A stretch of DNA of 64,000 bases from Abditibacterium sp. (GCA_965246885.1 OZ251992.1:1440001-1504000); one strand, 5' to 3'; shown: positions 18,401 through 21,400, counted from the stretch's first letter. Numbers are program-made.

Positions 18401-21400
18401 TCCCCGCGACCGCCCCATCGCCGAAACGTGGGAGGTCGCCGATCACGGGCCGGAGCAATCCGTTGTCATCAACGGCTCCCTCGCCGGGCGCACGCTACGC
18501 GAACTGATGACGCAGTTCGGAAGCGAACTGGTCGGCGGCGAAGTCTGGGCGCGTTATGGTGACTACTTTCCCCTGTTGGTCAAGTTCCTCGACTGCGACA
18601 AGCGCTTGCCCGCGCACATGCACCCCGACGACGACACGGCGCGCGCGCTTGGTTTGGGCGATACGGGCAAATCGGAAGCGTGGTACATCGTGCGCGCCGA
18701 TGCGAGCGCCACAGCTTATGTCGGTGCCCTGCCGGGGCTGGGCGCCGAAGAGTTTACTCAAGCCATCCACGCGGGCAACCCCTACGACGGCGTGATGAAG
18801 CACGTCCCGACGCGCACCGGTGATACCTATTTCGTGCCGCCCGGTCGCTTGCACGGACTCGACGCCGGGAATCTGGCCTTTGAAATTCAGCAGAACTCTG
18901 ACGCCGGGTTTGGCTGGGAGTGGGCCGGATTCGTCGAAGCGGGCGTCGTTTCAGCCGAAGACGCCGCGCGCCATAAGCCCTTGGCCGTTGCGCACGCCTT
19001 GTATGAAGACGGCCTGCAAGAGCAAACGCGCGAAGTCGTCCTACAAGAAGACGACGACGAGCGCGCCTTTTGTTGCGCGTGCAAGTACTTCGTTTTGGAG
19101 CGCCTCAAGATACGCGGCAACACCGACTTCCACGACCCGCAAGCGCGCTTCAACACTTTCACGGTCATCTCAGGCGCCGCGAACTTTTCGGGTGGCGGCG
19201 AAGTCGCTTTCGCTAAGCGCGGCGAATCGCTGCTTATCCCTGCCGGAGTCGCCGTCAAAATCGAGCCGAACGCCCTCGCGGGCGCCGGAGAAGTCGAAAT
19301 ACTGCGCTGCTACGTCCCCGACTTGCAGCGCGACGTGGTGGACTTTCTGCGCGCAAGCGGCGTAAGTGACACCGACATCGCGTGGCTTGGCTCGTATGGT
19401 TCGGGCAACGACCTGTTGGGCTTATTGGGCCTGCCGCAAGCCCTATTCGATGTCACCACAAGCGAGCGCCACCAAGCGGCGTTGGAACACCGCGACTCGC
19501 GCGACGAGACTTCCTGAGCGCGCGCTGTGGCCAAAGTTTGCGGGTGGAGGGACTCGAACCCCCAGAAACCAGTTCCTAAGACTGGCGCGTCTGCCATTTC
19601 GCCACACCCGCGCTTCTCTTTGCGCCGCGCGGATTCTAATAGAGAAAACGCGGAGCGGAAGTGGCAAGAAGTATAGACTGACCCATAGCAGTCGCAAGGC
19701 GGCAAGCGCATGAGCGACACCCATCATGGCCGAAGTCTCCGAATTCTCTTTAGCGCAACGTCCGGCGCCGCGCGTGTTGGTGTTGGAACTCGAAGCCGCC
19801 CATAAAAACGGCGGCCCGCGTGGGCGCGCCCCCGAAAGCGCCCTGCGCCGCATCGGGAACGTCGCCTCGCAGTCGGGGCACCGCGTCGTCTTTGCGGGTG
19901 AGCCGAGACTCATTGACGGCCTCGCGCCCGAAGTGGTCTTGCTCGATGCGACGGCGCCCGGAGCGGCGCTGTCGCTCGACTTAGTGCGCGCCGACGACGC
20001 CACCCGAAGCTCGTCGGTTGTCGCCGTGCATCAGCGCAAAACGCGCGAAGAAGCGTTGCAGGCTTTGCGCTTGCAAAGCTCCGACGAGTTTTTGGCGGAG
20101 GATGCTCCGCGCTTTGAGTGCTCCGCTCGCATCGAAGCGGGGGCCGCGATGTGCCGCGCGCGCGCCGAAATACAAGACTTGCGCGAGACCATCCACCGTC
20201 AAACCCGCGTGGACGACCTGACGGGCGTGATGAGCCGCCGCTTTTTCTTCCAGCAAGCGCAGCGCGAGTGCTCCCGCTCGCGGCGCTACGGCCACCCCCT
20301 GTCGTGTCTGATGCTCGAAGTCAATCACTTCAAGTTGATCTGCTCGAATCTGGGCGACATGACGGGCGAGCAGATATTGCGCTCGACGGCCAACATCATC
20401 GGGCAATGGACGCGCGACTCCGACTGGGTAGCGCGCTTTGCCGACGCCAAGTTCGCCGTCTTGTTGCCGGAAACCGACCTCGAAGGCGCAACAGGCGCGC
20501 GCGAAAAGCTGCAACGGGCGCTGGGCGCGCATGATTGGACGCGCGGTGAAGCCACTTTGCCTATCTCCTTTTCGGTTGGCGAAGCGCAGTTCCACCCCGG
20601 CTCGGCGTTTCGCTCGCAGTCGAGCGAGTTCATCTCGGAGTCGGACGAATCCGGCGACGCGGCGCTGTCGACGCGCGAAGCCCTCGCGGGCTTACTCGAA
20701 GATGCCGACGCCGCGCTGTATATTGCCCGCAAATCGGCGCGCGTGCCGGAAATGTTCGTGGCTTATACGCCCGCCGGGAACCCCGATGCCGATGGCTTTG
20801 CGCCGCGTTATGTGGAATGAGCGCCCCCGGTTCCCCCTAAGGCGCTATATTGGAAGAGATGAAAACCGAACTGCAAATTGAAGGCATGACCTGCGAGGCG
20901 TGCGTGGGCATCGTCGCGGGTGCCCTGCGCAACGTCGAAGGCGTGACGCGCGCCTTCGTTGACCTCGACACCAAGCGCGCTGAAGTCGAAGGCGAAGACT
21001 ATGACAGCGCCGACCTGCTTGAAGCCGTCGAGGAAGAAGGCTACGAAGCGCGGATTATCAAATAACTGCTTCCTTTATTTTCCGCCAATGACCCGCGCCC
21101 AAGCCCTCGCCGCTTCGCCCGCGCCGCCCGCTGTTTTGGAGGAGCAGACGCTACTCAGCATCCCCTTCTGCGACTTCGCGGGCCAAACGCGCGTCGGGCA
21201 ACTGGTGCTGCACCGCGAGTTGGCGGGGGAAGTCGCCGAACTGTTCCGCTTGCTACTCGTCGCGCGCTTTCCCATCGGCCAGATGACGCCGGTTGTGGCC
21301 TTCGGGTGGAGCGACGACGCTTCGATGGCGGCCAACAACTGCTCCAGCTTTAATTACCGCGTCAAAGTCGGCAAGACGGAACTGTCCGCGCACGCGACGG

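Follow-up and report, generated by a model that had tools for sequence, protein, structure and literature searches.

How can a leucine tRNA that lacks the long variable arm be the only reader of a codon, which enzyme would charge it, and how did it come to its locus? These questions are raised by the gene described here, which lies in a 64,000-nucleotide stretch of the Abditibacterium sp. genome (GCA_965246885.1, OZ251992.1:1440001-1504000; the stretch is hereafter the window, and its genome G000). We consider it highly probable (roughly 0.88) that the gene encodes a working, essential tRNA-Leu that decodes CUA and is predicted to be charged by the single, ordinary LeuRS of the cell.

The only tRNA detected by ARAGORN in the window is a tRNA-Leu(tag) (Table 1), which matches Rfam RF00005 with 63 bits over the whole model (1-71/71). 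Its structure parses into an acceptor stem of 7 bp, a D stem of 3 bp plus A13.A22, and anticodon and T stems of 5 bp each, with the anticodon loop CUUAGGA, a 5-nt variable loop and A73. Unconstrained folding gave no cloverleaf (z = -1.78), a result that counts neither way; unmodified tRNA sequences commonly fail to fold as a cloverleaf. Positions 7-30 are the same 24 nt as in the tRNA-Leu(GAG) of this genome. A single sigma-70-like site was found upstream, against a mean of 0.0 in shuffled sequences, and we infer that it is a putative promoter of the tRNA gene. An identical gene is present on two metagenome contigs (L578, L579), and a public contig across the stretch shows 0 differences but may be the window's own source, while the RNA-library contigs X21 and X23, which are of low depth, extend over no more than the tRNA gene of relatives and are not evidence of transcription. 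Elsewhere in the window (14208-15531), two convergent ORFs of 272 and 182 aa, which look like an accessory pair, follow a 1557-aa ORF that resembles the large subunit of glutamate synthase.

Table 1. Features at the tRNA-Leu(UAG) locus, in window positions.
Feature	Position	Strand	Basis
tRNA-Leu(UAG) gene, form A, 73 nt, without encoded CCA	19539..19611	-	ARAGORN, Rfam RF00005, structure parse
Variable region 44-48, UUUCU, replacing a 13-15-nt arm; U48 retained	19564..19568	-	structure parse
Anticodon UAG, followed by G37	19576..19578	-	ARAGORN, structure parse
Type II D arm: G12-C23, A13.A22, A14, A15, G18G19, A20a, G21	19587..19602	-	structure parse
Candidate sigma-70-like promoter (9/12 matches, spacer of 16 nt), with its end 58 nt upstream of the tRNA gene	19670..19697	-	
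Divergent GGDEF-domain gene, upstream synteny marker	19726..20820	+	Pfam PF00990, tblastn synteny
Convergent phosphomannose-isomerase-like gene, downstream synteny marker	18315..19517	+	Pfam PF20511, PF21621

Genome-wide, ARAGORN finds one UAG tRNA in G000, and the other four tRNA-Leu (CAG, UAA, CAA, GAG) are 83-85 nt long and keep their long arms. A D-arm-independent search of the genome for another UAG or AAG tRNA revealed no plausible one; its two matches were the window gene and a sequence without a tRNA-like D arm or acceptor stem. ARAGORN run at a lowered threshold returned 1525 calls, mostly noise, which were set aside. In a rough set of 2328 long ORFs, CUA accounts for about 2968 of about 96,650 Leu codons (3.1%), and since the window tRNA is their sole reader, its gene would be essential.

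Given the class I size of this tRNA, CUA might have been reassigned and the short tRNA charged by another synthetase, and CUN reassignments do occur in yeast mitochondria (PMC4756836). The codon alignments, 41 to long-arm outgroups and 149 to relatives carrying the second form of the gene (form B, see below), argue against such recoding, as CUA pairs with Leu as often as the other Leu codons do: resting on 62 + 11 distinct CUA sites, CUA of G000 stood opposite Leu in 73/94 aligned cells, compared with 3793/4888 for the other five Leu codons (Fisher p = 1.0). This holds against the long-arm outgroups (12/18 cells) as well as against the form B relatives (61/76), the CUA codons of the form B genomes were themselves Leu-aligned in 55/74 cells, and the codons facing CUA of G000 were mostly TTG and CTG. 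Moreover, every Leu identity element is invariant. Hence we reject recoding, which we regard as very improbable. A lower CUA use in short-arm genomes was not seen in our small samples (0.8-2.8%, against 1.6-3.2% in the outgroups).

It is similarly improbable that the gene is a pseudogene, an integration scar or an assembly error. Integration commonly targets tRNA genes, and a missed gene would be formally possible at the 92.7% marker completeness of G000; however, a short-loop gene with compensatory changes is present in 27/27 family genomes, among which no long-arm UAG tRNA was seen, the flanks are of the housekeeping type, and some 3000 CUA codons require a reader. An earlier note on this DNA had described a 73-nt tRNA-Leu(UAG) with a 5-nt variable loop as the sole CUA reader beside four long-armed tRNA-Leu and a single LeuRS, with no recoding; our analyses bear out this description throughout, the structure by ARAGORN, Rfam and the parse, the sole-reader status by ARAGORN and the D-arm-independent search, and the single LeuRS by TIGR00396, whose cut-off only one gene passes, 5 further matches staying at or below 64 bits.

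The class sample comprised 31 genomes, 27 of them from the window's family, the Abditibacteriaceae. A pattern built from the window's D arm matched only 6/25 and then 6/27 family genomes, and a looser pattern matched 26; in the last, G015, a short UAG gene adjoins tRNA-Gly(GCC). That most family genomes lack the gene, or that many MAGs do, as the earlier note had warned, was an artefact of the D-arm pattern, as 20/27 genomes have another D arm and one has a third form. The proposed fixation of the short arm in the family is thus confirmed in 27/27 genomes, and a same or near-identical gene is found in records titled Abditibacterium sp. and Abditibacteriota (L380, L414). No long-arm UAG tRNA was seen in the family genomes with these patterns, nor in the three of them given a looser check. 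The long arm claimed for the class and order outgroups was found in G025, G026 and G027, the three in which the gene was located; no UAG tRNA was found in G028, a genome 72% complete.

The family copies fall into three forms. Form A, with a type II D arm, is present in G000, G002, G003, G010, G012 and G017; form B, in 20 genomes, has C12-G23, C13 and a purine at position 46, and its D-arm pattern is that of at least 120 viral contigs; the copy of G015 has a type II D arm but is only 67% like form A. The locus itself is conserved: tblastn synteny places the GGDEF gene upstream of the tRNA in genera g1, g2, g3 and g5, the isomerase-like gene lies downstream in genus g1 beside form A and form B alike, and tRNA-Gly(GCC) lies downstream in g2-g6 as well as in the long-arm genomes G026, G027, G032 and G035. 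Five family genomes (G002, G004, G012, G016, G022) carry extra short UAG copies, all of them in tRNA clusters, which shows that there is a mobile supply. Such clusters (L501, L502, L503, L504, L083) hold several short Leu tRNAs (UAG, GAG, UAA, CAA), some with A37 in place of G37. As a separate observation, the tRNA-Leu(CAA) of the window's clade (G000:C1:3123718-3123802) has a shortened, 13-nt arm whose first five bases are those of the UAG loop, also in G020 and G024.

Could such a molecule still be recognized as tRNA-Leu? In E. coli, the Leu identity list includes A73, U8-A14, A15-U48, G18G19 and A20a, with C2-G71 as an antideterminant against SerRS, and the variable arm is not an identity element (PMC9976931). 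The window tRNA has A73, U8/A14, A15-U48, G18G19, A20a, G21, G37 and C2-G71. Among the 27 family copies, U8, A14, A15, G18G19, A20a, G21, A22, G37, U48, A73 and the 5-nt loop are invariant, C2-G71 is present in 26, and a Leu anticodon with A35 is combined with the discriminator A73 in all. The acceptor, anticodon and 10-12 D pairs of these copies are all standard and of several pair types, with 1 T-stem cell (50-64) mismatched, which, as judged from sequence comparison, shows the stems to be conserved through compensatory change. The type II core is built on the triples 8-14-20a, 13-21-22 and 9-12-23, without a variable-region base (PMC12360207), and the bases for U8-A14-A20a, R13-G21-A22 and G9-G12-C23 are present in the sequence of the window tRNA. 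By size it is not type II (its variable region is 5 nt, where type II has more than 10 nt with a stem), while the anticodon with A73, the elbow set, C2-G71 and a codon read as Leu all point to leucine identity.

The LeuRS of G000 (863 aa) is full length, has both an editing domain and the KLRDW peptide, keeps its C-terminal domain intact, and aligns along its length with solved bacterial LeuRS structures, best with 1h3n. Its leucine-specific domain (LSD) is 11 aa long and ends in Val-Glu, without Leu-Gly. In E. coli, the KLRDW peptide binds A73 (PMC6614811). We propose that the bacterial LeuRS would read the discriminator A73 and the D/T elbow rather than the variable arm, and that the 5-nt linker ending in U48 would stand in for the arm; as the core triples use no variable-region base, such a linker could replace it. 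The efficiency of charging would probably be lower by several-fold, a cost that may be bearable for a codon as rare as CUA (about 3% of Leu codons). Deletion of the arm from the A. aeolicus tRNA-Leu left 7.8% of the efficiency (PMC2377443), and the values for the S. coelicolor LeuRS are 6.25 per s per uM with its type I tRNA and 14.2 with type II (44%) (PMC6614811).

A single LeuRS charging both tRNA types has been published for S. coelicolor and its tRNA-Leu(CAA), and that report describes the Streptomyces LeuRS as the only prokaryotic enzyme to do so, a property tied to the LSD (Fan et al., 2019; PMC6614811). As in S. coelicolor, there is here one type I tRNA with a 5-nt loop, four long-arm tRNA-Leu and one leuS, the type I gene is apparently essential, and nucleotide 48 is kept. 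The two cases differ in isoacceptor and phylum (UAG here, CAA there), in the loop (UUUCU here, with U48 last; ACAGC there, with C48 last), in the enzyme (863 aa here, 11 of them in the LSD; 967 aa there, 38 of which form an LSD whose L732/G733 matter) and in retention, since the short gene occurs in 27/27 family genomes whereas some Streptomyces have no type I gene (PMC6614811). The window system is therefore an S. coelicolor-like dual type I/II system minus the Streptomyces enzyme feature. For Streptomyces type I charging, A73 is dispensable, C74 is decisive and the minimum variable loop is 5 nt (PMC6614811). The E. coli LeuRS, as well as that of S. purpurogeneiscleroticus, which groups with it, was unable to charge the Streptomyces type I tRNA (PMC6614811); since the G000 enzyme is similarly built, charging is not automatic.

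An adaptation of the LeuRS might be needed, as in Streptomyces, where type I charging depends on the LSD and its terminal Leu-Gly, here in the form of LSD loss. In E. coli, the LSD senses the arm loop, and an enzyme with a tetrapeptide in its place no longer distinguished two tRNA-Leu that differ in this loop (PMC3643597). The LSD is 11-17 aa long in the family enzymes compared with about 40-45 aa in G025, G026 and G028, and G038, of another class, whose short-arm gene sits in an ancestral operon, has an LSD of 6 aa. However, the long-arm genome G027 has an LSD of 5 aa, while G037, in which the only UAG tRNA found is short, has one of 47 aa; Leu-Gly before KMSKS was absent from every family LeuRS in which the region was recovered, and no signature tracking arm loss was seen by eye in the LSD or the C-terminal domain. 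We therefore think it unlikely that charging depends on such an adaptation; LSD loss may be permissive for type I charging at most, and charging by an ordinary LeuRS remains our preferred reading. With regard to these enzymes, the LSD of G028, G026 and G025 (L090, L091, L111) carries two CxxC/H motifs and is zinc-finger-like. The stretch EHAxxHLxYARF, presumably near the amino-acid site, is altered to EHARGHLIYARVW in four g1 genomes, G007, G001, G006 and G005 (L099, L104, L105, L106), and to EHATGH in G041 (L101).

Other leucine tRNAs without a long arm offer partial parallels. Engineered arm-deleted tRNA-Leu of E. coli (PMC9976931) and A. aeolicus (PMC2377443) likewise combine a type II core with a missing arm and can still be charged in vitro, though less efficiently; the window gene is their counterpart in nature, and a conserved one. 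The human mitochondrial type I tRNA-Leu(UUR) is leucylated without a long arm, with A73 and A14 as identity elements, as here, but it is organellar, is served by a separate LeuRS and shares its compartment with no type II partner (PMC9976931). Closer in anticodon are the accessory short tRNA-Leu(UAG) of the tRNA gene clusters in Mycobacterium (PMC6582537) and the phage tRNAs, which share UAG and a short variable loop with the window gene. Those cluster and phage copies are accessory beside a long-arm gene, whereas the window gene is solitary, the sole CUA reader and placed at a housekeeping locus. The form B D arm of the family is as in phages, that of form A as in Chryseobacterium clusters.

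How the short gene arose is less clear. The earlier note had stated that the tRNA has lost its long arm; the short arm itself stands, but loss alone is too simple a description, because the acceptor stem is unlike that of all 13 long-arm copies examined from the phylum, which start with GGG in 13/13 cases (10 of them GGGCGAG), compared with 0/27 family copies. We favour, as somewhat more probable than the other accounts together, that the family locus first held the phage-like form B and then received form A in place on two separate occasions, once in the window's clade and once in G017, rather than an ancestral gene having its arm trimmed. In the RpoB tree (28 rows, without the short sequences of G021 and G025 and without that of G005, which was not recovered), form A is found in two separate places, nested among form B; a single RpoB clade of the six form A genomes is rejected (p-AU 6e-108), and the FastTree trees of RpoB and LeuRS agree on the nesting. 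Together with the shared flanks, the rejected single clade and the nesting point to repeated in-place replacement, and form B as the ancestral form, replaced twice by form A, is the simplest reading. Form A is 93-96% alike across genera, with 96% identity between the G017 copy and those of G010/G012. Between the window copy and form B, by contrast, at most 55/70 positions (79%) agree, the inner variable region excluded. What is new is the apparent repeated in-place exchange of an essential chromosomal copy; the open-access literature yielded no report of such an in-place tRNA replacement, nor of a short-armed tRNA-Leu(UAG) in Abditibacterium/Armatimonadota.

The replacement reading is weakened by the unsure position of G015 and of the root, and by weak 71-column tRNA trees, in which form B falls among viral copies. 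Furthermore, no donor of form A was found among 194 phage and 113 plasmid records matched (the listed matches reach at best 79-82%) or among 6 metagenome and 43 viral loci; the best short match outside the family is 84%, with none above 85% among the copies fetched. Long-arm near-twins reach 63-65/70 positions, a likeness that is partly by construction, as the pattern was built from form A.

Some of the evidence would fit a vertical deletion of the arm, once, at the base of the family, with forms A, B and that of G015 as products of drift and form A the least changed. All 27/27 copies lie at one conserved locus, which in g2-g6 has a tRNA-Gly(GCC) neighbour as in the long-arm outgroups, form A retains the type II D arm of the outgroups, some form B copies have the anticodon arm of G027, and the window copy equals the long-arm G047 copy at 60/70 positions. 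Besides the GGG start, though, this account has to explain why form A is polyphyletic yet so alike across genera, and the AU test already weakens it; were form A ancestral, near-identical form B would have to have been gained in parallel about six times, as counted on the tree, and the form B D arm is the phage type. We consider a single deletion doubtful.

Beyond in-place replacement by forms B and A, one may tentatively envisage, as a possibility somewhat short of even odds, that the CUA slot was taken over by short-armed genes from a phage/tRNA-array pool and overwritten at least three more times (in the window's clade, in G017 and in G015), with a parallel case in G038, of another class, and that an E. 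coli/Thermus-type LeuRS with a vestigial LSD charges the product by a non-Streptomyces route. If true, mobile tRNA genes would have been domesticated repeatedly at a core locus.

Outside the family, a GTDB scan with the short-arm pattern gave at least 119 loci, 117/119 of which were called by ARAGORN. Among the matches listed, 62 of the 80 titled loci belong to Chryseobacterium or Epilithonimonas, and, of the 80 loci with full flanks, each of those listed has 2-15 other tRNAs within 1.5 kb. The earlier note had extended the arm loss to Chryseobacterium/Weeksellaceae, which we could not sustain: an 83-nt long-arm tRNA-Leu(UAG) is still present in both G256 and G257, within a Leu-Gly-Leu run, so that the apparent restriction of Chryseobacterium to the short copy, refuted for these two genomes, was a pattern artefact. 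As the long-arm copy is retained and the short copies are extras in tRNA clusters, the short copies of the Chryseobacterium type are accessory. An accessory short copy beside a long-arm gene is present in G256, G257, G258, G261 and G262; genomes with both types include two of Flavobacterium and one of Sediminibacterium. Among 91 genomes of the family of G256, sampled with a pattern that misses the D loop of its long copy, 28 matched as long-arm UAG, 7 as short UAG and 13 as long-arm CAG, and 44 had no match. The cluster of G256 (L522, G256:C1:3460000-3479999) holds 17 tRNA genes in about 2.5 kb, and similar clusters flank nearly all Chryseobacterium matches listed, which suggests a tRNA array widely retained in Chryseobacterium.

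The D arm of form A is of the Chryseobacterium cluster type and also has 107 viral matches. Within the phylum, 128/251 genomes had no match in a pattern scan, and 5/5 of those rechecked carried a long-arm UAG tRNA with another D arm. In G037 (L505, G037:C45:1-3700) and G038 (L506, G038:C154:1-4000), from other classes of the phylum, the only UAG tRNA found is a short form B, which in G038 lies in the ancestral His-Arg-Lys-Leu-Gly run. A probable separate housekeeping case is an order with 0.4-0.8-Mb genomes, in which a short UAG tRNA was found in 2/13 and a short CAG tRNA in 3/13 genomes. There, G259 has a short CAG and a short UAG gene side by side (L524, G259:C1:93500-96500), G260 (L525) has a short UAG and no CAG match, G360 and G362 have a short CAG with a long UAG, and the other 8 genomes with a match are long-armed, so that arm loss is independent by isoacceptor; one record of this order (L350) is titled alphaproteobacterial endosymbiont.

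A family that lives on a short-armed tRNA-Leu(UAG) and an LSD-poor LeuRS would be a direct natural experiment on what governs type I charging, be it the arm, the domain or the core, and a comparison is ready at a single locus, where form A has a type II core and form B a phage-like one. It would also show that short phage-type Leu tRNAs are able to serve as sole decoders. Compared with the known cases, the isoacceptor (UAG, and essential), the phylum and the LeuRS, with its 11-residue LSD without Leu-Gly, are different; the reach is limited to specialists in tRNAs and synthetases, as the genetic code is unchanged and no new machinery is involved.

Two other kinds of tRNA-like element were observed elsewhere in G000, beyond the window. 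One is a repeat of roughly 80 nt, dispersed and bounded by inverted ends, with 48 blastn matches (copies at G000:C1:351206-351281, 1435707-1435791 and 3354297-3354378); ARAGORN miscalls it as tRNA-SeC or tRNA-Stop. Besides the normal tRNA-Ser(GCU) at 1919550, a second tRNA-Ser(GCU)-like gene of 94 nt, with an irregular anticodon arm and a long variable region, lies at G000:C1:1805091-1805184(-).
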